A stretch of DNA of 64,000 nucleotides from Chloroflexota bacterium (GCA_021787985.1 JAJYLG010000008.1:2821-66820), one strand, 5' to 3'; counted from the first letter of the stretch, positions 3,429 through 51,415 are shown. Notes: a model not told the origin generated them from the sequence alone. Made by a program: numbers and translations.

Positions 3429-5303
3429 CTATTCTTCCTCCAAGAGGCAGGCGCAGGTGTTGACCTCGCGGACGATCGCCCTATCGCCGGCAAAGACGTG
3501 GGTGGTGCAGGGCATGCACGGGTCGAAGCTGCGGATGGCACGCAGGATGTCGATCCCCTTGAAATCCTCCTGGCGGTCGAACCGCTCGATGACCGGCGTG
3601 CTGAGCACCGCTTCCTCGTAGGGTCCCGGATTCCCCCAGGGGTCCCGCGGCGAGGCGTTCAGGGTGGACGGGGTGATGATCTGGTAGTTGGTCACCACTC
3701 CCTTGTCCATGACGAGATGGTGGGTGAGGTAGCCGCGGCCGGCGCCCCAGAATCCGGCGCCGAGCCGCTGGTCGTTGGGCACGCGGTAGTCACGGCTTAC
3801 GGCAACGTCGCCGCGCTTCATCAGATCGTACGCCGCCATGAGGTTGCTGAGCGCCACCAGTGCCGTGTAGGCCACGGCGTACGCCCGCGCGCGGTTGCGC
3901 TCGATGGCATTCCACTCGTCCGGGATGTGCCACTCGAGCTCCGTCTCCGGCAGCCTGCCCTTCGGCACGACCATCTTGAGACTGTGGCCGGTGGACTCGA
4001 TGAACGGGTTCGCCGGCAGTTTCTGAGCCGCGGCCGTGGTCCACATCCGCACGTACACGCCGGCCTCCACCGCCACCCGGTCCCAGCGCGGCGCCGTGTC
4101 CCAGGTGTACTTCTCCTTCCAGCTCCGGCCGACGGGCTTCGGTCGTGTCTCCTTGTTCCACGGATGGAACGGGCTGAGCGGGTATCCGGCGGGATCCGTC
4201 GGGAATTTCTGCCCGCTCCAGTCTTCGTAATAGGAGTGCTCGACGAACTCCTCGAGGCCCGCGTTCATGGCGTGAAGGTTCGTCGTGACCAGCTCGCCGT
4301 CGCGCACGACGCCGGGGGTGTTCCATCGTCGCTCACCCCACTGGGCCGCGTGTTCGTAGACCGCGTCGTATGCCTCGTGGTGGTCCCAGATCCCGGCGTC
4401 GATCAGGTTCTTCGGTCGTGCGCCCACCTGGCGAAAGCGCGGCTCGACCGCGTAGAGGAAGTCGTACACGTCGTCCCACAGGGGCGCGACCTTCTTGGCG
4501 TAGTCGAGGATGTCGAACAGGCGGGACTGGTACTCGTTGAAGACGCGAAACGATATTGTCGTGCTGATGCCGCCGGGCACGATCGTCTGGGGGTGTGGGT
4601 ACTTGCCCCACACCAGCACCGTCATCTCCCGGGCCTTACGCGTGATCTCGAGCGCTTCCAGGTATAGGGAGCCGCTCAGCGGGTTGAGCGCCGCCATGAT
4701 GTCACCGATCGTGCCGAATCCGTGCACGGCGGCGTGCGGCGCGGCGGTGTGCTCGGCGCGCTCCCAGATCTCGGGGTTAGTGGCGCGAATCGCGGACTCG
4801 GAGTAGTCCGGTCCGCCGAGCAGGAAGAGGTGCAACGGGTTGTCGTAGAGGAACTCGGCCGTCTGCCCGAGATTGCGCACGACGATGCCCATCGGCGGCG
4901 GCTGCACACCGAAGGCCATCTCGATCGCCTCTGCCGAGCAGTTGGCGTGGACCCCACCGCAGACGCCGCACGCGCGGCTGCTGATGAAGATCGCGTCCCG
5001 CGGATCGCGCCCCTTGAGGATGACCTCGTAGCCGCGGAATAGGGTCGCCATCGCGTGCGCGTCGAGCACACGGCCCTCGTTCAGGTCGACGACCGCGTGG
5101 AACGCCAGGGCGCCGGCCACGCGCGTCACCGGGTCGATGCTCACCTCCTGGATGTGGCCGTTGCGGCGCAGCAACTCCTCGATGCGTTCCTGCTGGGTCG
5201 CCACCGTTGTCGTCGCGCGAACTCCATATGGGTCGGCGACGTTGGCCTTGAGGCGTGCTCTGCCGGACTCGTCGAACTCAATCGGCAGGTTCTTGAAGCA
5301 CAT
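3429..5303 (-). CDS. hylL: [NiFe]-hydrogenase large subunit, group 1 (probably 1l/Hyl)
   Basis: L1 motif SRACGVCGGVH, L2 motif DPCMPCTTH followed by a cleavable C-terminal extension, and a GGAGGAG RBS. The subgroup and symbol are inferred from gene architecture. Confidence 0.9.
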   Translation of the reverse strand: MCFKNLPIEFDESGRARLKANVADPYGVRATTTVATQQERIEELLRRNGHIQEVSIDPVTRVAGALAFHAVVDLNEGRVLDAHAMATLFRGYEVILKGRDPRDAIFISSRACGVCGGVHANCSAEAIEMAFGVQPPPMGIVVRNLGQTAEFLYDNPLHLFLLGGPDYSESAIRATNPEIWERAEHTAAPHAAVHGFGTIGDIMAALNPLSGSLYLEALEITRKAREMTVLVWGKYPHPQTIVPGGISTTISFRVFNEYQSRLFDILDYAKKVAPLWDDVYDFLYAVEPRFRQVGARPKNLIDAGIWDHHEAYDAVYEHAAQWGERRWNTPGVVRDGELVTTNLHAMNAGLEEFVEHSYYEDWSGQKFPTDPAGYPLSPFHPWNKETRPKPVGRSWKEKYTWDTAPRWDRVAVEAGVYVRMWTTAAAQKLPANPFIESTGHSLKMVVPKGRLPETELEWHIPDEWNAIERNRARAYAVAYTALVALSNLMAAYDLMKRGDVAVSRDYRVPNDQRLGAGFWGAGRGYLTHHLVMDKGVVTNYQIITPSTLNASPRDPWGNPGPYEEAVLSTPVIERFDRQEDFKGIDILRAIRSFDPCMPCTTHVFAGDRAIVREVNTCACLLEEE

Positions 5304-6588: not shown

Positions 6589-7830
6589 CTACTCCGGCTT
6601 GGCGGCCGTGCCGTGACGCTGGCGCCGGTTGTAGAGGAACTCCAGCGTCCGGTCCACCACGGGCAGCTCGTACTCGGCGCCCCAGCCGCTGGGGATGCGC
6701 TTCTCCCGGTCCCAGCGGGTCGAGTGATTGCGGTCTCGCTGGGTCACTCTGCGAAGCGCGCGCACCAGCGCCCCGCCGGTCTTCGAGATGCTGCTGGACA
6801 CGAGGACGCCCGGTGCAGCCTTGTAGAAGGGCGCGAACTTGTCCGGGAAGCCCGGCATGGTGCAGCCGATGCAGACGCCCCCCGCGTGCATGCAGCCGCC
6901 GACGCCGTTGATGGCGCCTCGTGAGGTGATGTTGCAGTTCACCACGGGGCCCCAGCAGCCGATCTCGACCAGGCACTCGCGGTCGCCGGGGGAGTCGGCG
7001 AAGGTGCCCTCCTCGTAGTAGCCCGCGCGATTGCACTGGCGGTGGACCGTCTCGCTGAAGAGCCAGGCTGGTCGTCCCAGCTCGTCGAACTCCGGCACCG
7101 GTCCGAGGCCCTGCAAGAACAGCAGCACGGCGGCGACCGTCTCCGTGAAGTTGTCTCCGACCGGCGCGCAGCCCGGGATGTTGACGACCGGCAGGCCGAG
7201 CGCGCTGCGATACTCGGGTCCCAAGAAGTCCATCACACCCATCGCGCCCGTGGGATTGTGGTAGGCGGCGGGGATGCCGCCCCACGTGGCGCAGGTGCCG
7301 ATGGCGATGACCGCCGCCGCGCCCGGGGCCATGCGCTTGAGCCACGTCGCCGACGGCACGGCGCGGGCTTCACCTCGTGCCTCGTCGAGCTCCTCGCCCA
7401 CCGCCGACCAGTAGCCCTCACCGGCTCGCGCCTCGTCGGCAACCGAACCCTCGTAGACGACTACATAGGGGACGCCCAGCGTGCCTTCCGCCGCGCTGCG
7501 TGCGGCCCGCATGAACGGCTCGCCTGCCTCGACGTTGATCGCCGTGTGATGGAGGAAAACCTGCGGCAGCCCCGGCAACGTGCCCAGCAGCAGGTCCTCG
7601 ACGCGCGGCGCGGTCGCCCCGAGGACCGCGATGCTGCATCCGTCGCAGCTCATCCCCGCCAGCCAGAAAACGTGGACGGCGGTGTACGGACCGAGCAGGC
7701 TATCCTTGCCAAGCCGCTCCCGCGCCTGCCGCGCGATCTCCTCGGTGGTCGCGCCGGCAATGTTGCCGACCATCCCCATGCCGCGGCCCGGTGCGACCCC
7801 GACGGACGGTTTCTCCGTGGTCACCATCAC
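6589..7830 (-). CDS. hylS: [NiFe]-hydrogenase small subunit without a Tat signal
   Basis: Fe-S ligand motifs SCDGCS, GTCATWGG, PGCAP, HRQC, CL..IGC.GP..NC and GGC...GGVCIGC..PGFPD. RBS GAGGAGG. No RRxFLK motif. Confidence 0.9.
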   Translation of the reverse strand: MMVTTEKPSVGVAPGRGMGMVGNIAGATTEEIARQARERLGKDSLLGPYTAVHVFWLAGMSCDGCSIAVLGATAPRVEDLLLGTLPGLPQVFLHHTAINVEAGEPFMRAARSAAEGTLGVPYVVVYEGSVADEARAGEGYWSAVGEELDEARGEARAVPSATWLKRMAPGAAAVIAIGTCATWGGIPAAYHNPTGAMGVMDFLGPEYRSALGLPVVNIPGCAPVGDNFTETVAAVLLFLQGLGPVPEFDELGRPAWLFSETVHRQCNRAGYYEEGTFADSPGDRECLVEIGCWGPVVNCNITSRGAINGVGGCMHAGGVCIGCTMPGFPDKFAPFYKAAPGVLVSSSISKTGGALVRALRRVTQRDRNHSTRWDREKRIPSGWGAEYELPVVDRTLEFLYNRRQRHGTAAKPE

Positions 7831-7857: not shown

Positions 7858-8643
7858 TCAGCGCGCGACTTCGCGCGTCAGCGTCTCGACCAGCGCGCCG
7901 ATAGCCCGCACCGCCGGCGCCGACGGCCGATAGTCAATCGCCGATCGATTCTCCCGATCGGCATCTTGAACGGACTCATCGAACGGGACCACCCCCGCCA
8001 CCGCCACGCCAAGGCGCTGGCTGTACTCGCGGATGGCGGCCTCGTCCCGTGGCGAACGGACCTTGTTCGCGACCGCGTGAACGCGAGGGAGACCCAGCCC
8101 GCGCGCCAGCGGCACCGTTCGCCCCATCGTCTCCAGCGCTCGGTAGTAGGGCTCCGTCACCACCAGCAGCGTGTCCACGTTGCGCACGGTGCCACGGCTG
8201 AGGTGCTCGATGGACGCTTCCATGTCGAGGATCGTCACCTCGTTGCGCGACGAGGACGGCAGCTCCGCGATCACGCCACGCACCGTGGCGTGCTGTCCGC
8301 ACAGTCAGCCCTTGCCCGCGCCCAGGAGGCCGGTCATAGAGAGCACTCGCATCCCGGCAGGACCGACCACGCCGTACTCCGACACGATCTCGTCGAAGGG
8401 ACGCCGCAGCCGCAGGCTGGCCCGCCCTTCTTCGTCTACCAGCTCGTCGAATATCGCTTCTCGGGGGACGCGGCGCAGCGCGCTGATCTGTTCTGGCGCC
8501 AAGCCGAGGGCCGCCGCCAGATTCGGATTCGGGTCATCGTCGAGGGCGTTGACGCGGTAGCCACGTTCGGCGAACACGCGCGCCATCGTGGCCGCCACCG
8601 TCGTCTTGCCGGCGCCGCCCTTCCCCGCGACGGCGATTCTCAC
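7858..8643 (-). CDS. cooC: CooC/AcsF-type Ni-insertion ATPase with in-frame UGA (predicted selenocysteine, U113-L-C115)
   Basis: The two ORF-track pieces (8305-8745 and 7858-8283) are one reading frame separated only by TGA 8305-8307. Motifs GKGGAGKTT, DDDPNPNL and DMEASIEHLSRGT are present. GTG start at 8643 follows GGGAGG, giving 261 codons. Confidence 0.85.
8272..8307 (-). other. Candidate bacterial SECIS element
   Basis: UGA, then 12 nt, then the perfect hairpin CACGCCACG-GUG-CGUGGCGUG (8272-8292). The apical loop starts with G about 20 nt after the UGA. Confidence 0.65.
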
Positions 8644-8817: not shown

Positions 8818-8846
8818 ATGTTAGTGCGGGATTTCCCATATTTCAA
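8818..8846 (-). promoter_or_regulatory. Sigma70-type promoter for the cooC-hydrogenase operon
   Basis: TTGAAA (8841-8846), 17-nt spacer, TAACAT (8818-8823), in a locally AT-richer patch. Confidence 0.6.
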
Positions 8847-8929: not shown

Positions 8930-10615
8930 TCAGCTTGCACCGCGGATTTGCGTTCCCACCGGCTGTCCCGTCACGAAGACTTGCTTGAAGCAGCCGTTCG
9001 TGCCGCTGCCGTACCAGCCATGGGCGAAGTACCAGGCATCCAGCACCGCCGCACGGTAGATCCAGTAGCCCGTCGGATAGTACAGGTCGATCGTGGGCAG
9101 GTCTTGGGCGAGGATGACCTGCATCCGGTCGACGATGGCCTTGCGCGCGGCCTCGTCGATGGTCGAGAGCTGCTGCGCGGCAAGGCTGTCGAACGTCGGA
9201 TTGGCGTAGCCGTGGACCCGGGTGAAGCTCTTGCTCTTGCTGTGACTGTCGAACTTCGCGCGCAGGCCATCGGGGTCGCCTCCCAGCCCGCCGAAGCCGA
9301 CCAGCGCAAGGTCGTAGCGACCCTGGGCCGCCGCGCTGTCGCGCGCTTGCCCGTCCATGACCTGCGGCGTGACCTGGATCCCGGCCGCTTTCAGGTAGGA
9401 CTGGAGCAGCTCGGCAACACGGATCGGATCGCTGTTGGCCAGGATCAGTGGGAAGCGCAGCGGGGTGCCCGTCGCGGTCTCCCGGACTCCATCGTGGTCG
9501 CGGTCGAGATAGCCGGCGTCGTCGAGGAGCCGCTGCGCCTTTGCCGTATCGAATGGGTACTGTGGCACCCGGGGGTTATGCCAGGGGCTGGTCGGCGCGA
9601 CCTGGCCGGGATTCCCGACCACCCCCTGGCCCTGGAGGAAGCGCGCGACCAGGTCGTCCAAGTTCAACGCGTAGCCGACCGCCTGCCGGAATCGGACGTC
9701 GGCCAGCGGACCGCCCTTCGCCATGTTGAAGAACAGCGCGAACGTCCATTCCAATGGCGAGCTGATTGTCTTGAATCTGTTGTCTCGCTTAAACGAATCG
9801 AGGACGCCCGGCGGGGCCGCCTGGTTGAACCCGAGGCCGCCGGCGTCGATCCCACCCTGCTGCAGCGCCAGCAGCTCGTTGGGGGCGGGCACCTGTTCGA
9901 TCCGCCGCACGTAGGGACGGCCGAGGAAGAAGCTATCGTTCGCTTCGAACAGATAGCTGCCCTGTGCTTCGTTGTACTGCTGCAGGCGATATGGCCCGGT
10001 TCCGACCGTGGCGCTCGGTGCGTCGAACTTGGTCGGGTCACTGACCGGTTCCCAGACGTGCCTGGGCAGGATGAACACCGACGTGGCGATCGACGGGATC
10101 AACGGCGCGTAGGGCTCCTTGAGGCGCAATCGGATCGAGGTCTCCGTCACCTTCTCGGCACCCGCGACCACCTGCAGGCTAGACGCCCACCATGGGGTCG
10201 GGTGCGCAGCCAGGTACTCGAAGGTGAAAACCACGTCGTCGGCCGTGAACGGTTGGCCGTCCTGCCACTTCACATCCGGGCGGAGGCTGAAGGTCCAGGC
10301 GCGCCCTCCCTGCTCCGGCGCCCAACTGGTCGCGAGCCACGGTATGACTCCGCGCGAGTCGTGCCACGCGAGGGTGTCGAAGACGTAGCTCGTGTTCACG
10401 TGTCCCGGACCGCGCGAGAACATGAACGGCGTGGGTCGCCCGTAGTCCCCGCCCGCCAGTCGCACTGTCGGCCGAGGGGCGGCCGTCGCGGTCGCGGTCA
10501 CGGCCTGCTGTGCCCCGCCGCTGCACGCATTGAGCAGCCAGGGGGCGGCGGCGACGATCCCGCCGGCGCCGGCCGCCCGCAACAATGCTCGCCTGGTCAG
10601 ACCTCGACTCGCCAT
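8930..10615 (-). CDS. ABC transporter substrate-binding protein, family 5 (Opp/Dpp/Nik), Tat lipoprotein
   Basis: TRRALL twin-arginine motif, lipobox LNAC, and LRPDVKWQDGQPFTADDVVFTF and VGTGPY family 5 motifs. Confidence 0.88.
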   Translation of the reverse strand: MASRGLTRRALLRAAGAGGIVAAAPWLLNACSGGAQQAVTATATAAPRPTVRLAGGDYGRPTPFMFSRGPGHVNTSYVFDTLAWHDSRGVIPWLATSWAPEQGGRAWTFSLRPDVKWQDGQPFTADDVVFTFEYLAAHPTPWWASSLQVVAGAEKVTETSIRLRLKEPYAPLIPSIATSVFILPRHVWEPVSDPTKFDAPSATVGTGPYRLQQYNEAQGSYLFEANDSFFLGRPYVRRIEQVPAPNELLALQQGGIDAGGLGFNQAAPPGVLDSFKRDNRFKTISSPLEWTFALFFNMAKGGPLADVRFRQAVGYALNLDDLVARFLQGQGVVGNPGQVAPTSPWHNPRVPQYPFDTAKAQRLLDDAGYLDRDHDGVRETATGTPLRFPLILANSDPIRVAELLQSYLKAAGIQVTPQVMDGQARDSAAAQGRYDLALVGFGGLGGDPDGLRAKFDSHSKSKSFTRVHGYANPTFDSLAAQQLSTIDEAARKAIVDRMQVILAQDLPTIDLYYPTGYWIYRAAVLDAWYFAHGWYGSGTNGCFKQVFVTGQPVGTQIRGAS

Positions 10616-10697
10616 GCCCCCTCGCCTCCGATCGCTCTTCCCATCGCGGAACCAGTCCGTCCGGCTCGATGCCCGAGCCGCCGGCGGATTCGCGCGC

Positions 10698-12620
10698 CTA
10701 CTCTTCCGCCGCCGCACCCGCCTGGATCTCGCGCCCCGAACCGGGCGGCTTCCAAGCAGGCAAACGGTCGTCCGCCGCCTCAGCCTCGACTGTCTCTGGG
10801 GCCGCGCGACCGTTCGCGCGCAACGCTTGGGACCTGGCGCCGGCAGCCGCGACGAGCAGCCGCCGCGTGTAGGGATGCCGCGGCTCGCTCACCACTTGCT
10901 CCGAGGGCCCGGCCTCCACGATCCGTCCGTGCTCCATGACGATCACGCGGTCGGCGACTTTACGGACCAGGGGTAGGTCGTGGGAGACGAGCAGGAGCGC
11001 GGTGCCGTGGTCGTTCTGGAGGTCCTTGAGCAGGCGCAACACGCGGGCTTGCTCGCTCGGGTCGAGCATCGAGGTCGGTTCGTCCGCCACGATGACCTTG
11101 GGGCGTACGACCAGGGCCCGCGCGATGGCAATGCGCTGCAACTGACCGCCTGACAGCTCGTGCACGCGCTTGGCCAGGAACTCCCGCGTCGTGGGCAGCC
11201 GGGCGGCGGCCAGCGCTGCCCGCGCCGTCTCGTCTCGTTCCGCGCGGTTCCCGATCCGCTGGATGTCGAGCGGCTCCCGCACCAGCTCGAGCGCAGTGAG
11301 GCGTGGGCTCAACGCCTCGTACGGGTCCTGGAAGATGAACTGCAGGAGTCGGCGCGCGGCTCTGCGCGCCTCCCCTCTCAGCGAATGGAGCGGCTGGCCC
11401 TGCAACTGCACGTCGCCCCGGTCCGGTTCGAGGAGGCCCACGATCATCCTGGCGAGCGTGGTCTTCCCGCTTCCCGTCTGGCCAACGACCGCGACCACCT
11501 CGCCCTCGCCCAGATGGAGGCTCGCGTCCTGCACGGCCTGCACCGGTGGGCCCGGGCCGTCGCGGAACGTCTTGCTGAGTCGCCGCGCCTCCAGCAGCAG
11601 GCGAAGACCGCCCAGGTGGCAGGCAACCAGCCGGTCGAGCTGGGGCATGAGCGCCGGGATCTCGGCCTGGCAGCGATCGATGGTTTGCGTGCAGCGCGGC
11701 GCGAACGCACAACCGGAAGGAGGGCACATGGGGTCGGGCGCTTCGCCGCGGATTCCCCAGAGGTCCTTCGAGCGCGTCATGGTGGGGTAGGCGTTGACCA
11801 GACCCCAGGTGTACGGATGGCGCGGGCTTTCGATCACGTCGTGAGCCTCGCCGACCTCCACTGCCCGTCCCGCGTAGAGCACGAGCGCGCGCTGCGCCAG
11901 TTGGCGCACGTCGTCGGGGTTGTGGGAGATCACCAGCATCGCGAGGTCGTGCTCCGCGTGCAGCCGCCGCAGAAGGTCGAGGATCGCCACGCGGGTAAAG
12001 GAGTCGAGGCCGCTGGTCGGCTCGTCGAGGATGAGAAGCGCCGGGGCGCCGGCGAGGGCCATCGCCAGCATGGCGCGCCTCTTCTCGCCTCCGCTGAGCT
12101 GATGGGGATAGTGGCCGAAGCGCTGGGCTGGCAGGCCGACCTCATCCCACGCGCGGAGCGCGCGCTCGCGAGCCGCGTCGCGGCGCAGACCGCGCCGCTC
12201 TTGGAGTGGCTCGATCAACTGGTCGCCTACCCGCTGTACCGGATCGAAGCCAGTGCCGCTCGCCTGCGCGACCAGCGCGATCTGCGACCAGCGGAATCGG
12301 TTCATGGCGCGGTCGTCGCGGAGCGGCAGTGGCGTCCCGCCGAATTCGACGACTCCCTCAACCTCCGCCGTGGGCACGAGGCCCAGCAGGGCAAGCGCCA
12401 GCGTGGTCTTGCCTGAACCCGATTCGCCGATGACTCCAAGGGTGTCGCCACGGCCGAGCTCGAACGTGACCCCGCGGAGCGCCGGGAGCATGAGGTCATT
12501 CGGCAGGCGGTAGCGCACGCTCAGCTCGCGAACCGCGAGCAACGACCGGTGCGCGACGGCGCCGTCCGTCGAGGGTCGCTCAGGCCCGCGTTTGCAGTCG
12601 GTCGACTCGTGCGTTTCCAT
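10698..12620 (-). CDS. Fused dual-domain ABC ATPase (OppD/OppF-like)
   Basis: Two Walker A motifs (GESGSGKT, GQTGSGKT), two LSGG signatures and a PSGC.F.PRC...ACH Cys motif. The start is uncertain. Confidence 0.88.
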   Translation of the reverse strand: METHESTDCKRGPERPSTDGAVAHRSLLAVRELSVRYRLPNDLMLPALRGVTFELGRGDTLGVIGESGSGKTTLALALLGLVPTAEVEGVVEFGGTPLPLRDDRAMNRFRWSQIALVAQASGTGFDPVQRVGDQLIEPLQERRGLRRDAARERALRAWDEVGLPAQRFGHYPHQLSGGEKRRAMLAMALAGAPALLILDEPTSGLDSFTRVAILDLLRRLHAEHDLAMLVISHNPDDVRQLAQRALVLYAGRAVEVGEAHDVIESPRHPYTWGLVNAYPTMTRSKDLWGIRGEAPDPMCPPSGCAFAPRCTQTIDRCQAEIPALMPQLDRLVACHLGGLRLLLEARRLSKTFRDGPGPPVQAVQDASLHLGEGEVVAVVGQTGSGKTTLARMIVGLLEPDRGDVQLQGQPLHSLRGEARRAARRLLQFIFQDPYEALSPRLTALELVREPLDIQRIGNRAERDETARAALAAARLPTTREFLAKRVHELSGGQLQRIAIARALVVRPKVIVADEPTSMLDPSEQARVLRLLKDLQNDHGTALLLVSHDLPLVRKVADRVIVMEHGRIVEAGPSEQVVSEPRHPYTRRLLVAAAGARSQALRANGRAAPETVEAEAADDRLPAWKPPGSGREIQAGAAAEE

Positions 12621-13464
12621 AGCGCTCCAGCGCGGTGCCCCACAGCGTGAACCCCACGACGAGCAGCGAGATGCAGGCTCCGGCGGGGAGGGCCCACCAC
12701 AACCAATAAGGCGTGAGGTAGATCCCGTCGAAGTTCAGCGCTGCACGGAGGACCCCTCCCCAGCTCTTGAGGGTCGGGTCGCCCAGGCCGAGAAAAGCCA
12801 GCCCGGCCTCCATCATCACGGCCCGTCCGGCCAGCGACACGAACGCGGCCGCGGCGACGGGCGTGACCGCCGGCAGCAGGTGGCGGCGCATCAGGTAGAA
12901 GTGGCTGCCTCCCAACAGGCGCGCGGACTTGACGTGAGCGCGCTCGCGCAAGGTCAGGACCTGGGCGCGGATCACCCGTGCGGGCCCGGCCCACATTACC
13001 AGCACGACCACCAGGATCACGCTGTTGAGCCCCGGCCCGAGAAAGGCGGCCAGGACGATCATCAGCGGAAGGTGCGGCACGGCCATGAAGACGTCCACGA
13101 CGCGCATCAGCAACGCGTCGAACCAACCGCCGACGGTCGCCGCGCTAACGCCGACGAGCAGCGCGAGCGCCAGGCTCAAGCCGGCTCCCAGGAGTGCGAC
13201 CGTCAAGGAGACGCGAGCGCCATAGATGAGCTCGCTCAGGATGTCCTGGCCGACATCGTTCGTGCCGAGCAGATACGCGCCGGTCGGGCGCAGCAGTGGC
13301 GCGGCGACGTACGCGGTCGGATGGTACGGCGCGACCAGTGGCGCGAGGACGGCCGTGGCCGCGAACCCGGCCACGATGCCGGCACCCAGCCACGCCGCGC
13401 TCAGGCGCAGCCGTCGTCGGGAGACGAGGGCGGGGCGTGGCAGCGGCGTCGCGAGGGAGCTCAT
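12580..13464 (-). CDS. ABC permease (OppC/DppC/NikC-like)
   Basis: LLGTNDVGQDILSELIYGARVSL, EAA-loop region and LAFLGLGDP...SWG. Confidence 0.9.
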   Translation of the reverse strand: MSSLATPLPRPALVSRRRLRLSAAWLGAGIVAGFAATAVLAPLVAPYHPTAYVAAPLLRPTGAYLLGTNDVGQDILSELIYGARVSLTVALLGAGLSLALALLVGVSAATVGGWFDALLMRVVDVFMAVPHLPLMIVLAAFLGPGLNSVILVVVLVMWAGPARVIRAQVLTLRERAHVKSARLLGGSHFYLMRRHLLPAVTPVAAAAFVSLAGRAVMMEAGLAFLGLGDPTLKSWGGVLRAALNFDGIYLTPYWLWWALPAGACISLLVVGFTLWGTALERYGNARVDRLQTRA

Positions 13465-14492
13465 CGGGTCCTCACGCGCGGGTCAAGCCGGGCATAGGCC
13501 AGGTCGGCGATCAAGTTGGCGGTGAGCACCGACACCGTGAAGACGAGGAAGACTCCCTGCAGCACGGGATAGTCCCGAGCGGAGACCGCCTGAAACGCCA
13601 GCGTGCCCATGCCGGGATAGGCGAACACCGCTTCGACGAAGATGGAGCCGGTCACGGCGAAACCGAGCTGGATCGAGAGCACGGTGACGAAGGGGAGCAG
13701 CGCGTTGCGCAAGGCATGACGGTACTTCAGGCTGCGGTCGGACAATCCTTTTGCCTTGGCCACGAGCATGAAATCGTCGCCCAGCACGGAGATGACGCTG
13801 TTGCGCATCAAGAGGAACTGGCCGCCCAGCATCTCGATCGTCAAGACCAGCGCCGGCAACGCCCAGTGGTGGAGCAGGTCGGCCAGCGCGCCCCACGGTG
13901 AGCGGTAGTGGGCGAACGGCGTCTGGGCGCCGGCGAGCGGGAACCAGCCGAGCCGGACGCTGAACAGCAGCAAGGCGAGCACGCCGAGGAAGAAAGCCGG
14001 GAGGGTCCGAATGCCGGCGAAGAGGACGATCAGGCCGCGGTCCAGCGGCGAGCCGCGATGCCAACCGGCGTGCAGGCCGGCGACCATGCTGACCAGTGAC
14101 GCCGCGAGCATGGCCGGGAAGATGAGCAGGACGGTCCAGAGGATGCGGTGCTGGATGAGCAGGCTCACGGGCGCATTCAGGCGAATGGACCAGCCGAGGT
14201 CCCCCGTGGCCAGGCCACGGAGGTACCTCCCGTATTGCACGATCAGCGACTGATCGAGCCCATAGTAGTGCGAGAGCGCGGCGCGGCTGGCCTGATCGCT
14301 GACGTAGAGGCTGCTCTCCGGGTCCTGCAACGCCGTGATCGGGTCTCCCGGCATCATCCGTGGCAAGGCGAAGTTCAGCGTGATGACGGCGAACAGCGTC
14401 AGCACGAAGGCCGCGCAGCGTCCGGCCAACCAGCGGGGAGGGCCGGTACGCTGCCACCGCATCCGTCGTGCCGCCCGTGCCACGGCTAGCAT
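13461..14492 (-). CDS. ABC permease (OppB/DppB/NikB-like)
   Basis: RMMPGDP, GLDQSLIVQYGRYL..L..GDLGWS, AKAKGLS and RDYPVLQG. Confidence 0.9.
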   Translation of the reverse strand: MLAVARAARRMRWQRTGPPRWLAGRCAAFVLTLFAVITLNFALPRMMPGDPITALQDPESSLYVSDQASRAALSHYYGLDQSLIVQYGRYLRGLATGDLGWSIRLNAPVSLLIQHRILWTVLLIFPAMLAASLVSMVAGLHAGWHRGSPLDRGLIVLFAGIRTLPAFFLGVLALLLFSVRLGWFPLAGAQTPFAHYRSPWGALADLLHHWALPALVLTIEMLGGQFLLMRNSVISVLGDDFMLVAKAKGLSDRSLKYRHALRNALLPFVTVLSIQLGFAVTGSIFVEAVFAYPGMGTLAFQAVSARDYPVLQGVFLVFTVSVLTANLIADLAYARLDPRVRTR

Positions 14493-14564
14493 CGCGTGCG
14501 GACCCCCCTCCTCCCCCGGCGCCTTCCGTTTGGCGCCTCCGGACTCACCTCGTGGAGCGGCCTG

Positions 14565-15191
14565 CTAGAGCCGTCGCGGCCAGCGAGAGTCCAGCCGTTC
14601 GAAGCACGGGATGCACAGCATCTGTCCGCGGAAGCGTCGCAGGCGCGTCTCCATCGTCATCTCTCCGCATCGCTCGCACGGGACGGACTCGTGGACGCGC
14701 GCGTGCGCCGGCACAACGGGCTCTGCCGCGCGGACCGCGTACAGCCGTTCCTCCGGAGCGTCCAGGACGGCTTGCGCTCGCTGCTGGTGGAGCGCCTGGA
14801 ACCGCGCTCGCTGCTCGGGTGTCGCCTCGCCGGCTCGCACCTTCGCGAACAGCGCGGACCATTCCGGGTCCGCCGGAAGCGCCTGTGGCAGGCTTACCAG
14901 CCGGATCGCCTTGCCATCGCTGCGGCGGATGAACGTGTAGGCGTTCTTGCCGTGATCCAGGTGGATCAGGTTGCCCTTGCCGAACGTGCAGCCGGTGAGG
15001 TACTGGATGGCGTCCACGGCGCACATGTCGGTCTCGACGACCGCCACCACCTCCTCGTCCGACGAGTGGGACCCGATCTCGCGCAAGGCGATCTGCGCGG
15101 CGCGGATACCGAGCGCCAAACCGGGGCACATGTGCCCGTGGAACCGGACGACCTCCGCGACCGCCGACGGGGCGTCGATTGCTCCCGCCAT
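14565..15191 (-). CDS. FmdE/FwdE-family protein with a C-terminal zinc finger
   Basis: FHGHMCPGLALG, VETDMCAVDAIQ..TGCTFGKGNL and C..CGE...E......LCIPC. ATG 15191 follows GGAGGAG. Confidence 0.88.
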   Translation of the reverse strand: MAGAIDAPSAVAEVVRFHGHMCPGLALGIRAAQIALREIGSHSSDEEVVAVVETDMCAVDAIQYLTGCTFGKGNLIHLDHGKNAYTFIRRSDGKAIRLVSLPQALPADPEWSALFAKVRAGEATPEQRARFQALHQQRAQAVLDAPEERLYAVRAAEPVVPAHARVHESVPCERCGEMTMETRLRRFRGQMLCIPCFERLDSRWPRRL

Positions 15192-15237
15192 CGCTCTCCT
15201 CCTCCCGCTCCCGCCGTCTTCCCCAGCGGGTCGACCG

Positions 15238-15537
15238 TCAGGCCGCGCAGTTGCAGTCGCCGCAGGCGCAGCGACCGTGGAAGAGCTCCCGCTCGAGCCT
15301 GGCCACGTCACGCAGCCTCTTGAGCTCCTCAGGTGCGAGCGCCGCCACAAGCGCCGGCACCAGGAGCAACAGGTCGACGAGGTGGGCGAAGTCGGGGCGG
15401 GCACCGCCCCACTCCCAGAGCGATATGGCCGACTGGTCAACGCCGACCATCCGCGCGAGCTCCGCCTGCGTCCAGCCGTGGGTGGCGCGCGCGGCGCGGA
15501 TCGCCGTCGCCAGGTCCGCTGTCTGCTGCGACATCAC
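15238..15537 (-). CDS. XRE-family HTH transcriptional regulator with a Cys-rich C-terminal tail
   Basis: IRAAR..HGWTQAELARMVGVDQSAISLWE.G..RP HTH. The protein ends in HGRCACGDCNCAA. Confidence 0.85.
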   Translation of the reverse strand: MMSQQTADLATAIRAARATHGWTQAELARMVGVDQSAISLWEWGGARPDFAHLVDLLLLVPALVAALAPEELKRLRDVARLERELFHGRCACGDCNCAA

Positions 15538-15572: not shown

Positions 15573-15629
15573 ATGAGTGGGCTCATGTTACGCACACGCG
15601 CGGCAGCGGGTCAAGCGCAAGTCAAGCGC
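15573..15629 (-). promoter_or_regulatory. Promoter and candidate operators for the XRE-fmdE-ABC operon
   Basis: TTGACC (15609-15614), 18-nt spacer, TAACAT (15585-15590). An ATGAG-N4-CTCAT palindrome lies at 15573-15586. GTCAAGCGC direct repeats lie at 15610 and 15621. Confidence 0.55.
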
Positions 15630-15841
15630 CTGACCGAGGCCACCTGACGGAGGAAGGAGGGACACGAGGCGCTCTCGCGCGCCTCGCGCGTAACACTCGG
15701 CCGGACGCTGGCGGTTTGGGCCAGCGGAGAGATGCCACAAGGAGGGGATGCGGCATGAGGAGAGGCCGGCGGTCTCGGACCGCGGCATGGAGCAAGGATT
15801 GAACGCCGGGCGACCCCGAACGTCAGCCTGAGGAGGTCGGC

Positions 15842-17482
15842 ATGGAATACCGAAGCCGCCGGCCGGGAGCGCAACCGTGGTTGCTCCTGCCGGCGCTTGC
15901 GCTGGTCCTGATCGTCGCGCTGCTTGCCGGGCCGGGTGGCGCTGGCTCCGGCAGAATTGGGGCGGCGGCGGATGGAACGCGGTCGCAGGGAACCAGCACA
16001 AACTTCATCACGGGCGTGCTGCCTCCGCCACCGCCCGGATCGACCGTCAACTACAATCTTGCCGGCGAACCACAGATCCGGGCAGCGGCCGACGGCAGCC
16101 TGTACATCTCCTCGGAGAACGGCCTGAGCGCGGGGACGGACGCTTGGAAGTCGACGGACGGTGGCCTGCAGTACTCGGCGCTGGCACAGCCGAACGCCAT
16201 CTCCAGCGCCAACACGAGCGCGAACAGCGGCTTTGCCCCCGGCGGGGGCGACACGGATCTTGCCATCGCACCGGTGAAGAACGGCCCGACGAGCAACGGC
16301 CAGTACAACGTGTATGTCGCCAGCTTGACGCTCGGGGACGTGACGGTGAGCGCCTCGCAGGACGGGGGCCTGACCTGGAGCTCGTCCGAGCTTGGCGCGA
16401 CGGTGCCGGCGGACGACCGAGAGTGGATCGCGGCCTACGACGCGAATATCTACTATCTTTCGTATCACAACATCGCCACGGGATTCCAGATTATCGTCAA
16501 CGAAGGCGCGCTCGTCAGCGGCGTGCCGACCACCGTGCAGACCTACTCCGCCATCAATCCGGCCCAGACCGACATCTACCTCGGGACGGCGGCGGACAAC
16601 GAGTTGGGCAACATCGCCGTCGACCCGACGAGCGGGGCGGTAGCTCAGATCTTCGTGGGCTGTCCTCCGAGCCCCACCGCCGTCGCGAGCTGCTCGAGCT
16701 TCAACACGGTGTACATGGCGGTCGGCACGCCTACGGGCGTGAACGCTGCCGGCCAGCCGATGCTCGCGTTCTGGGATTACATCGTCTACCAGGACTCGAA
16801 CCCGAACGCGAACTTCGCGAACCAGTTCCCGAACGTCGCCATCGACCGGGCGGGCAACATGTACGCGGCCTGGTCGGACGATCAGAACGTCTATGTCAGC
16901 TTTTCCCGGGACCACGGGAAGAGCTGGAGCGCGCCGCAGCGGGTGAATCAGGGCAGCGCGGTGACGGCTATCTTCCCGTGGATGGCGGCGGGCGACGCGG
17001 GCAAGGTGGACATCGTGTACTACGGTACGCCCGCGCCGCAGAATTACCAGACGTGCACGGCGGGCACGCCCGGCCAGTACGACTGCCAGAATGAGCCCTG
17101 GTACGTCTTCTTCGCGCAGGACCTGAACGCGGTTGGTGGCGGGCGCTGGCAGCAGCAGCAGGTCACCGGCGTCGTGCACTACGGCGGCGTATGTCAGGGT
17201 GGCGTCGGCTGCTCGTCCAACGGCAACGACAACCGCGATCTATACGACGACTTCGGCGTGGCAGTTAGCCCGACCACGGGACTCGCCTCCATCGCCTACA
17301 CGAGCGACCAGTGGGACGAGCTGCAGGGGACCGCCGACGCCGGGGCTTGCAGCGCGAGCCAGTCCAACACCGTGAGCTGCGTTCACACGGACTTCGCGAC
17401 GCAGGTCGGTGGTACTCCGATCTTGGGCGTCGCGGACAGCGCGCGCGCGTCGAGTCGGCGAGGACCGTACCGAGACCGCTAG
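15842..17482 (+). CDS. Secreted Asp-box/BNR (sialidase-like beta-propeller) protein
   Basis: Signal peptide, three Asp boxes (STDGGLQY, SQDGGLTW, SRDHGKSW), paired cysteines and RBS GGAGG. Confidence 0.75.
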   Translation: MEYRSRRPGAQPWLLLPALALVLIVALLAGPGGAGSGRIGAAADGTRSQGTSTNFITGVLPPPPPGSTVNYNLAGEPQIRAAADGSLYISSENGLSAGTDAWKSTDGGLQYSALAQPNAISSANTSANSGFAPGGGDTDLAIAPVKNGPTSNGQYNVYVASLTLGDVTVSASQDGGLTWSSSELGATVPADDREWIAAYDANIYYLSYHNIATGFQIIVNEGALVSGVPTTVQTYSAINPAQTDIYLGTAADNELGNIAVDPTSGAVAQIFVGCPPSPTAVASCSSFNTVYMAVGTPTGVNAAGQPMLAFWDYIVYQDSNPNANFANQFPNVAIDRAGNMYAAWSDDQNVYVSFSRDHGKSWSAPQRVNQGSAVTAIFPWMAAGDAGKVDIVYYGTPAPQNYQTCTAGTPGQYDCQNEPWYVFFAQDLNAVGGGRWQQQQVTGVVHYGGVCQGGVGCSSNGNDNRDLYDDFGVAVSPTTGLASIAYTSDQWDELQGTADAGACSASQSNTVSCVHTDFATQVGGTPILGVADSARASSRRGPYRDR

Positions 17483-17736: not shown

Positions 17737-17821
17737 GCCGGGGTGGCGGAACTGGCAGACGCGGCAGACTTAAAATCTGCGGCCGGAAGGCATGCGGGTT
17801 CGAATCCCGCCCCCGGCACCA
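17737..17821 (+). tRNA. tRNA-Leu (anticodon TAA), CCA encoded
   Basis: Acceptor stem GCCGGGG/CCCCGGC, anticodon arm GCAGA-CTTAAAA-TCTGC, long variable arm, GGTTCGAATCC T-loop and 3' ACCA. Confidence 0.95.
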
Positions 17822-49747: not shown

Positions 49748-51415
49748 TTGACCGCCAGGTCCCGAAGTCCCCGATACCCTTCGCTCCAGCGCGAGACCCG
49801 TCGCCGCGGATGGCTGCTCCTGCTGGCCGCGGGCGTCGCAGCGGCCGCGCTCGGCGGGATCTGGTGGTTCGGTCTGCGGGCGCCTGGTGACCGGCCCGCG
49901 TTTGGCGGCACCTACGTCGAAGCGGAAATTGGTCAGGCGCGTCGGGTGAACCCGCTCTATGCGTCGTTCAACCAGGCGGACCAAGATCTCGCCGCCCTGG
50001 TGTTCAGCGGTCTCGTGCGCATGGGCGCCCATGGTGAGGTGCTTCCCGGCATCGCCGAGCGCTGGGACATCAATGCGGACGCCACCGAGTTCACCTTCCA
50101 CCTCCGGCGCAACGCGCTGTGGCAGGACGGCAAGCCGGTGACGGCCGATGACGTGGTCTTCACCGCCGCCCTGCTGGGCTCGCCGGACTACGCGGGGGAC
50201 CCGGCACTTCAGCAGGTCTGGCGCGGGGCCACCGCGGTGAAGATCGACGAGTACACCGTGCGCTTCGTCCTCAAGCAGCCGTTCGCGCCGTTCCTGGCGT
50301 ACTGCTCCATCGGGCTGCTGCCGCGCCACCTGCTGGAAGGGATGTCCGCCTCCCGCCTCGCGGACGCAGGGTTCAATCGCCAACCCGTGGGAAGCGGGCC
50401 GTACCGCCTCGTCGCGCTCGATTCCGCGCACGCGGTGCTCGAGGCGGTCTCCGGGTACTATCTCGGCGGTCCCTACATCAAGACGATCGAGATCCGCTTC
50501 TTCCGCGACCCCCGTGAGGCGATGAACGCCGTCTTGCGGAAAGAGGCCGATGGCGCGCTGCTGCCCCCGGTCTTCCAGGCGAACGAGTGGGCGGCGCTGG
50601 CCGCCCGGCAGGACGTCAGGCTGCTCCGCGAGACGCGGACCAACTCGCTCGTCCTCTACCTGAACAACGGCCAGCCGCCGTTCACCGATAGCCGTGTTCG
50701 CCAGGCGCTCTCGCTGGCCATCGACCGCGGCCGCGTCGCGGACCTGGCCGCCGGCGGTCGGGCGACGCCGAGCGATCTGCCCATTCCCCCCGGCGCCTGG
50801 GCGGCGCCGGCCGAAGCCGTCGCGCCGTCGGCGGACCCCGCGCGCGCGAAATCGCTGCTGGCTGAGGCCGGCTGGACGCCCGGCCCGGACGGGACGCTGA
50901 CCCGCCAGGGGAAGGCGATCGAGTTCACGCTGGTGGCGAACAACGATCCCGGCCGCGTCGCCGCGGCCACGGAGGTCGCGCGCCAGCTCGCCGTCATCGG
51001 CGTGAAGGTGCAGGTGGCCACCGCCGGCGCCACCGAGGTGCTGCGTGACTTCATCGCGCCGCGCAGGTATGAGGCCGTCCTGTATGGTTGGGACCCAGGG
51101 ATCGACCCTGATCCCTACCCGGCCTGGGACAGCGCGCGGGATACGCCGGACGGCGGAAACGTGGCACGCTACCACAACAGCGAGGTCGACCGGCTGCTGG
51201 AGCGCGCGCGGCAGACACCCGACCAGGCCGCCCGGCGCTCGTTGTACGACCAGTTCGTGGCGCGTTTCCGGGCCGACGCACCCTCGATCGTGCTCTACTA
51301 CGCGCAGGACACGTACCTGCTCCGGCGCGATATCCACGGGATCGAGCCCGCGGTCCTCGCGCAGCCGTCCGCCCGCTTCTGGGACGTCGCCGACTGGTAC
51401 GTGAAGACGAGGTGA
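49748..51415 (+). CDS. Peptide ABC transporter substrate-binding protein (family 5)
   Basis: N-terminal TM helix, GG.YVEA.IG...RVNP, WQDGKPVTADDV.FT and PVGSGPY. Confidence 0.88.
   Translation: MTARSRSPRYPSLQRETRRRGWLLLLAAGVAAAALGGIWWFGLRAPGDRPAFGGTYVEAEIGQARRVNPLYASFNQADQDLAALVFSGLVRMGAHGEVLPGIAERWDINADATEFTFHLRRNALWQDGKPVTADDVVFTAALLGSPDYAGDPALQQVWRGATAVKIDEYTVRFVLKQPFAPFLAYCSIGLLPRHLLEGMSASRLADAGFNRQPVGSGPYRLVALDSAHAVLEAVSGYYLGGPYIKTIEIRFFRDPREAMNAVLRKEADGALLPPVFQANEWAALAARQDVRLLRETRTNSLVLYLNNGQPPFTDSRVRQALSLAIDRGRVADLAAGGRATPSDLPIPPGAWAAPAEAVAPSADPARAKSLLAEAGWTPGPDGTLTRQGKAIEFTLVANNDPGRVAAATEVARQLAVIGVKVQVATAGATEVLRDFIAPRRYEAVLYGWDPGIDPDPYPAWDSARDTPDGGNVARYHNSEVDRLLERARQTPDQAARRSLYDQFVARFRADAPSIVLYYAQDTYLLRRDIHGIEPAVLAQPSARFWDVADWYVKTR

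Follow-up and report, generated by a model that had tools for sequence, protein, structure and literature searches.

Gene content of the locus

Here we analysed a stretch of 64,000 nucleotides from a Chloroflexota bacterium (GCA_021787985.1, JAJYLG010000008.1:2821-66820; this whole stretch is called the window) and in it an operon which encodes an FmdE-family protein together with an ATP-binding cassette (ABC) importer next to a [NiFe] hydrogenase. The window has a G+C content of about 70%; its genome, termed G000, is assembled in 189 contigs and is 95.6% complete. The operon comprises six genes, all running in one direction on the minus strand from 15537 down to 8930. It borders on cooC and the sole NiFe hydrogenase found in the assembly.

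15238..15537, minus strand: XRE-family helix-turn-helix regulator, 99 residues (HTH_3, 39.8 bits, Pfam)
14565..15191, minus strand: FmdE-family protein with a C-terminal C4 zinc ribbon, 208 residues (PF02663, 161.2 bits; PF01258, 29.8 bits)
13461..14492, minus strand: ABC permease of the NikB/OppB/DppB type, 343 residues (BPD_transp_1, 118 bits)
12580..13464, minus strand: ABC permease of the NikC/OppC/DppC type, 294 residues (BPD_transp_1, 83.5 bits)
10698..12620, minus strand: fused double ATP-binding subunit, DppD-DppF-like as in GsiA/YejF, 640 residues (two ABC_tran domains plus oligo_HPY)
8930..10615, minus strand: family-5 solute-binding lipoprotein, 561 residues from ATG 10615 (SBP_bac_5, 266 bits)
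7858..8643, minus strand: CooC-type P-loop nucleoside triphosphatase (NTPase), start GTG 8643 (context gene)
6589-7830, minus strand: [NiFe]-hydrogenase small subunit (context gene)
3429-5303, minus strand: [NiFe]-hydrogenase large subunit (context gene)

A sequence-only reading of the window had named these six genes as co-directional and had placed the end of the operon about 290 bp before cooC. All six are present on the minus strand with the domains expected there (Pfam, NCBIfam), and the spacer between the binding-protein gene and the start of cooC measures 286 nucleotides. The FmdE gene is shorter than the longest open reading frame; it starts at ATG 15191 behind the ribosome-binding site GGAGGAGGAG and stops at 14565. 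The second permease gene overlaps the upstream permease gene by 4 nucleotides. The reading frame of the binding protein spans 8930-10717, and its likely start is ATG 10615 behind the ribosome-binding site GGAGGCGAGGGGG.

The component set of an importer is complete in one operon, i.e. a family-5 binding protein, two BPD_transp_1 permeases and two ATP-binding domains. Among these proteins the ATPase alone passes an NCBIfam cut-off, that of a generic dipeptide ABC transporter ATP-binding subfamily (NF008453, 453 vs 408 bits). For the first permease the best NCBIfam model was the Opp2B nickel permease (237 bits, cut-off 350). The second permease scored 186 bits with Opp4C, 164 with Opp2C and 163 with NikC; none of these NCBIfam cut-offs was reached.

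The FmdE protein matches PF02663 with a score well beyond the gathering score of 22.9 bits. Its structural matches are PDB 2glz, 2gvi and 3d00, with which it shares two domains, a His-His-Cys-Cys site and a C-terminal C4 zinc finger. Across 20 aligned orthologues of several phyla (59-73% identity) the metal site His18-His20-Cys22-Cys57 (His-x-His-x-Cys...Cys) was invariant and aligned with that of 2glz and 2gvi; equally invariant were Cys172, Cys175, Cys193 and Cys196 of the zinc ribbon. The His-His-Cys-Cys site lies at the base of a 30 Å cleft and contains zinc in the structures, in PDB 2glz mixed zinc and nickel (PMC2954224). The protein is not a formylmethanofuran dehydrogenase subunit E in the strict sense, as its operon partners are ABC transporter genes and not fmd/fwd. 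In the family at large, fmd genes accompany just 13 of 208 PF02663 genes and most adjoin genes for metal-ion transporters (Axelrod et al., 2010; PMC2954224).

FmdE has been without an assigned function for about thirty years, though it is widespread in bacteria and archaea. The sequence-only reading had called its function outside methanogens unknown. This needs qualifying, since the general link of FmdE to metal transport was already published in 2010. That report (PMC2954224) named no metal, transporter class or partner. The partners specified here are ABC importers of two classes, ATPases fused to FmdE, CooC, hydrogenase, LarBCE and a NikR-type box; in this detail they are unpublished as far as our literature search reached. 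On FmdE with nickel, NikR or siderophores the search found nothing beyond the 2010 paper.

Natural fusions were sought among longer proteins. In P0128, P0129, P0131 and P0144 FmdE forms the C-terminus of an ABC ATPase. This domain order was confirmed by Pfam, with oligo_HPY present or absent depending on the fusion. These fusions are the strongest evidence that FmdE may act on the pump from the cytoplasmic side. Other fusion partners of FmdE (P0125-P0146) were O-methyltransferases, TrmO_N, an HD phosphohydrolase, DUF89 (PF01937), cupin_5, a luciferase-like oxygenase and an acetyltransferase.

The XRE regulator ends in a C-x-C-x2-C-x-C tail (HGRCACGDCNC). The pattern G-x-C-x-C-x-G-C-x-C is kept in XRE genes of Chloroflexota and Deinococcota (L016, L024, L072, L084). 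The cysteine tail was also present in five metagenome contigs, in an XRE-CooC fusion (L118) and in G272, the genome with the closest relative of the hydrogenase (83%). In G272 the XRE gene is divergent from cooC, with neither FmdE nor ABC genes nearby. Possibly the tail senses a metal; if true, this new XRE subtype would extend the short list of nickel sensors. The fusion L118:4917-6116 is an open frame of 399 residues with a cysteine-tailed XRE and a complete CooC domain (GCRC motif). In this metagenome contig the two domains are either naturally fused or joined by read-through.

Gene neighbourhoods of FmdE and of the hydrogenase

FmdE loci were compared using one genome per species. This yielded 80 loci with orthologues 43-66% identical, and neighbours were identified by tblastn and clustering of open reading frames. 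FmdE was located beside importers of the Nik/Opp or FecCD type in 52 of the 80 loci: 35 had binding-protein or permease genes of the Nik/Opp type, 16 had FecCD, Peripla_BP_2 and an ABC ATPase, and one had both importer classes, which brings the FecCD type to 17/80. Neither class was present in 28 loci, many of them on short contigs.

Within the same 80 loci CooC was found at most 10 kb from FmdE in seven, and a group-1l-like hydrogenase, 60-67% identical to that of the window, near FmdE in six. The loci with CooC or hydrogenase belong to Chloroflexota, Rubrobacteraceae, Gaiellaceae and other Actinomycetota and display at least four gene orders. In L016 and L024 the order downstream of the hydrogenase is XRE, CooC, a PF09819 membrane protein, FmdE, binding protein and permeases. 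The order of the window, FmdE-permease-permease-ATPase-binding protein, was encountered in six metagenome contigs (L126, L128, L131, L139, L140, L143), and CooC adjoins FmdE in ten further ones; among the contigs L137 duplicates L016, and L143 probably duplicates L018. L118 carries on a single strand HydL, the XRE-CooC fusion, two different Nik-like ABC systems and FmdE. In many loci CooC is directly beside FmdE and ABC genes are not visible (e.g. L025, L121, L124, L141, L182). In two Anaerolineae genomes genes for a LarE-like protein, LarB and LarC, the set for synthesis of the nickel-pincer cofactor, directly follow FmdE on the same strand (L044:1737-5555, L051:2903-6989). The sequence-only reading had asked for synteny with nickel enzymes elsewhere and had considered that the association might be unique to this genome. 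The FmdE/ABC module does recur in other genomes, beside CooC and group-1l-like [NiFe] hydrogenases, in two phyla and with differing gene orders.

A further nickel signal was observed in two Synergistota loci, in which the palindrome GTGTTAC-N14-GTCACAC is located upstream of FmdE (L074:759-786, distance 70 nucleotides; L079:9955-9982, distance 46 nucleotides). L079 is a FecCD-type FmdE cassette of Synergistales. The palindrome matches the published delta-proteobacterial NikR signal GTGTTAC-N13/14-GTAACAC (PMC545781). In 2.1 Mb these were the only two sites with at most one mismatch to the NikR-type palindrome, and both are just upstream of FmdE. A NikR gene near FmdE was found in none of 177 loci (tblastn, E. 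coli NikR query).

Several other arrangements were seen in the FmdE loci. The PF09819 membrane protein ('ABC_cobalt', similar to S-components of energy-coupling factor transporters) is encoded between CooC and FmdE in L016:9209-9961, L024:2818-3480 and L177 (Chloroflexota). A cassette of FmdE, a TrmO_N protein, FecCD and Peripla_BP_2 recurs in L120, L136, L138 and L152; the S-adenosylmethionine-binding TrmO-like protein of the FecCD cassettes is without an obvious transport role. In Deinococcota (L084:2814-10615, and L072) a cysteine-tailed XRE gene comes first, followed by a NitT/TauT-type ABC system and a DsrE-like gene, and the same operon continues with a Nik-like binding protein, permeases and FmdE.

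The hydrogenase served as a second starting point. Of 401 genomes from the same phylum, 11 in addition to G000 had a large subunit at least 60% identical, and ten of these 11 loci were compared (one unpublished genome was left out). The unpublished genomes G304 and G208 enter only this tally. CooC is adjacent to the hydrogenase in 8/10. In three of the ten a Nik-like binding protein and permeases are encoded within about 6 kb of the hydrogenase: in G299 and G371 they adjoin CooC directly, and in G089 the distance to the hydrogenase is about 6 kb. FmdE was found at none of the ten loci. This indicates that the link between importer and hydrogenase is independent of FmdE, which would be an optional accessory.

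Neither family models nor the G272 proteins detected HypA or HypB in G000; beside the hydrogenase, just upstream of the window, the genome does encode HypD. Similarly, HypA and HypB were not found in G299, G371 and G047. Both are present in G272 and G067, neither of which has an adjacent ABC system. Thus, in a small sample, three of the four genomes without HypAB have a Nik-like ABC system beside CooC-hydrogenase, and all three genomes with this arrangement that were compared for HypAB are without it. The missing HypA/HypB in G000 leaves room for a CooC-based nickel route.

Substrate of the importer and role of FmdE

On balance, and with some reserve, we favour the reading that the operon encodes an Opp/Dpp/Nik-family, binding-protein-dependent importer which supplies nickel, probably in the form of a small chelate complex, to the CooC-type chaperone and the [NiFe] hydrogenase next to it. 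The lipid-anchored binding protein would capture the substrate outside the cell, and the two permeases with the fused double ATPase would carry it inward. FmdE, a presumed cytoplasmic dimer with an exposed His2Cys2 site and a zinc ribbon, would act at the pump's ATPase face, where it may accept the metal or strip the chelator from it and then pass the metal on, the hand-over presumably running in this direction. Encoded first in the operon, the XRE regulator might sense the metal via its four-cysteine tail and set transcription. Nickel as the substrate is suggested by the genomic context. The sequence-only reading had likewise proposed a metal or metal-chelate importer with a cytoplasmic FmdE partner. 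This is supported by the comparative evidence, i.e. the importers at 52 of 80 loci, the ATPase fusions and the linkage to CooC and hydrogenase, and not by the arguments given at the time. These had been Tat (twin-arginine translocation) export as a mark of cofactor-loaded proteins and membership in the NikABCDE family.

The arguments in question concern the binding protein. Its N-terminus has a twin-arginine motif, TRRALL, and a lipobox-like LNAC (Cys31). Twin-arginine lipoprotein signals are also present in two other family-5 binding proteins of G000, and most orthologues have Sec-type signals, i.e. the Tat signal is not conserved. On these grounds Tat export was rejected as a mark of a cofactor-loaded protein here. 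In the NCBIfam ranking the NikA model was best, followed by CntA (116 bits, cut-off 800), Opp4A, and DppA (99 bits, cut-off 1005); OppA scored 61 bits (cut-off 947), and every score stayed below its cut-off. Among PDB entries NikA proteins came first (E 1e-38 to 6e-35) with AppA and DppA close behind. Identity was 29% to E. coli NikA and 24% to DppA. Judged by such rankings, the nearest characterised relatives of the binding protein and of the first permease are nickel systems.

A tree was calculated from 33 FmdE-linked binding proteins, five other full-length paralogues of G000, and E. coli NikA, DppA, OppA and GsiB; it is a quick tree with few references, from E. coli only, and long branches were flagged. 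The FmdE-linked proteins form three strongly supported clades. Clade A contains the protein of the window together with Chloroflexota and Actinomycetota proteins (support 98), clade B those of ANME/Methanosarcinales and Desulfobacterota (A plus B, support 100), and clade C those of Gaiellaceae, Chloroflexia and Deinococcota. Together, A to C are set apart from every reference and paralogue (SH-aLRT 93). His186 in a P-x-H-x-W motif is invariant across the three clades; NikA has Gln at this position. A second family-5 binding-protein gene of the window (50036-51136, plus strand; G000:C152:52856-53956) yielded a very long branch remote from the FmdE-linked clades.

Several points weigh against the nickel importer. 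The score with the NikA model TIGR02294 was 142.4 bits and did not reach the cut-off of 393, and E. coli NikA and DppA gave equal pairwise scores of 130 bits. The positions of NikA residues Arg97, Arg137, Trp398, Tyr402 and His416, which hold the nickel-histidine complex, are taken by Thr, an unaligned gap, Gly, Gly and Lys, i.e. these residues are not conserved; in this comparison the loop alignment is uncertain, and a His is present two residues before the His416 position. An Asp-Pro motif is retained and aligns with the peptide-amine-binding Asp of DppA. In the phylogeny suggested by the sequence-only reading as a check, E. coli NikA pairs with DppA outside of clade A. By score, ligand residues and tree the binding protein is not a NikA orthologue, and nickel as its ligand is suggested by context. 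G000 could also be supplied with nickel by another route alone: a full-length NiCoT (NicO, 303 bits) is encoded at G000:C156:14689-15795, at a contig end with uninformative neighbours. CbiM and HupE/UreJ were not found in G000. Neither was a nicotianamine-synthase-type metallophore gene (PF03059) nor a NikR_C match, and the window has no NikR box. FmdE was not found in G371, G089 and G047, three of the five group-1l relatives searched. Related FmdE loci are not independent samples.

Other points of this kind concern the metal itself. The His2Cys2 site is typical of zinc, and zinc dominates in the crystal structures. FmdE orthologues are also encoded beside an ABC-3/ZnuA-type importer (L054), a TonB-dependent receptor (L049) and FecCD-type importers. 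Divalent metals are commonly used in the HD, DUF89 and cupin enzyme families, members of which are fused to FmdE. With fusions so varied and neighbours of the ZnuA/ABC-3 and TonB-dependent types, the metal of FmdE may differ between loci. Possibly the imported chelate contains a different transition metal such as zinc, cobalt or iron, with FmdE as a general metal acceptor and the hydrogenase adjacent for a need unrelated to nickel. A binding protein without the nickel-complex residues of NikA would agree with this. We consider it rather unlikely: the partners that recur, namely CooC, [NiFe] hydrogenase, LarBCE and NikR-type boxes, are specific for nickel. Corrinoid transport as the task of the FecCD-type FmdE loci was rejected, as a cobalamin riboswitch was found in 0/10 of them.

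It is very unlikely that an ordinary oligopeptide or dipeptide importer came to lie beside the hydrogenase by chance, with unrelated roles for FmdE and XRE. The binding protein is located in an FmdE-linked clade outside that of the G000 paralogues and OppA/DppA/GsiB, it remains far below the DppA and OppA cut-offs, and the linkage of FmdE, CooC and hydrogenase persists across phyla despite rearrangement. Still, a peptide importer would explain that the ATPase passes the dipeptide subfamily model and that the binding protein aligns with DppA as well as with NikA and has kept the Asp-Pro motif. In addition, G000 contains eight family-5 binding-protein matches, seven of them besides that of the operon and five of these full length. 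A different role for FmdE is conceivable as well. It might mainly be a hydrogenase maturation factor, a HypA-like nickel metallochaperone acting with CooC and loosely coupled to the pump. Like FmdE, HypA has both a metal site and a C4 zinc site; neither HypA nor HypB was found in G000, and CooC is directly beside FmdE in the many loci without visible ABC genes. This is unlikely in view of the fusions with ABC ATPases and of FmdE being far commoner with importers than with hydrogenases. Furthermore, three genomes with the same hydrogenase type are without FmdE, and two of them (G371, G089) have CooC beside the hydrogenase.

As a nickel importer, the operon resembles E. coli NikABCDE/NikR in its family-5 binding protein, two BPD_transp_1 permeases and two ATPase domains, in its location with a nickel enzyme system, and in that NikA structures are the best PDB matches. 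It differs in a binding protein of only 29% identity which belongs to another clade and is without the NikA ligand residues, in ATPases that are fused and have oligo_HPY regions, in a cysteine-tailed XRE regulator instead of NikR, and in the FmdE gene. S. aureus CntABCDF, the staphylopine-metal importer, and Opp2/NikBCDE are of the same transporter family. CntABCDF imports the metal as a chelate; the binding protein has the CntA model as its second-best match, and the first permease has Opp2B as its best. In contrast, the CntA score was far below its cut-off and a nicotianamine-synthase-like gene was not found in G000. Helicobacter FecDE/CeuE and NikR-regulated FecCD nickel importers represent the FecCD class found beside FmdE orthologues in 17 of 80 loci, and in L079 a NikR-type box precedes FmdE. 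This transporter class, however, is not that of the window.

This locus and its relatives allow a specific role of FmdE to be tested, that of a cytoplasmic acceptor at the ATPases of metal-chelate ABC importers, for the most part in a nickel context. The locus points to a module for nickel supply and its regulation for group-1l hydrogenases. These are the most prevalent hydrogenase group in Antarctic desert soils and have been implicated in mixotrophic growth (PMC13554262). A description of nickel acquisition or its regulation in organisms with group-1l hydrogenases was not found in the literature searched. A bolder proposal, to which we concede only a minor chance, is a self-contained nickel route that would replace the canonical HypA/HypB step for group-1l hydrogenases, consisting of an XRE sensor, a Nik-like importer, FmdE on the ATPase and a CooC-type NTPase (here with selenocysteine). 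It is based on the genomes in which HypA/HypB were not found (G000, G299, G371, G047) and on their presence in G272 and G067 without an adjacent ABC system. If true, FmdE would be the long-sought link which carries nickel from the ABC pump to the insertase.

Promoters and further features of the window

Two sigma-70-like sites were observed compared with 0.4 expected. Both are consensus matches only and both contain the -10 hexamer TAACAT.

15585..15614, minus strand: sigma-70-like promoter TTGACC-18-TAACAT, upstream of the XRE gene
8818..8846, minus strand: second sigma-70-like promoter TTGAAA-17-TAACAT, in the spacer before cooC

Transcription of the importer operon and of cooC-hydrogenase probably starts from separate promoters. 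We considered and rejected a terminator downstream of the binding-protein gene: the GC-rich hairpin there has no U tract, and its stability does not exceed that of shuffled sequences (z = 0.96). A common operator was rejected as well, since by eye the sole stretch shared by both promoter regions was the TAACATG -10 region. Except for one tRNA, Rfam elements were not found in positions 1-24000 of the window.

The cooC gene has an in-frame TGA at 8305-8307, in the position of the metal-binding C-x-C. In G272 cooC is split into two open reading frames (L099:4404-5318), consistent with an in-frame stop as in the window. Upstream of the XRE gene, 15611-17482 contains two long, overlapping open reading frames on opposite strands (522 and 546 residues) without a significant Pfam match. 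Beyond this pair a tRNA gene is located at 17737-17818.

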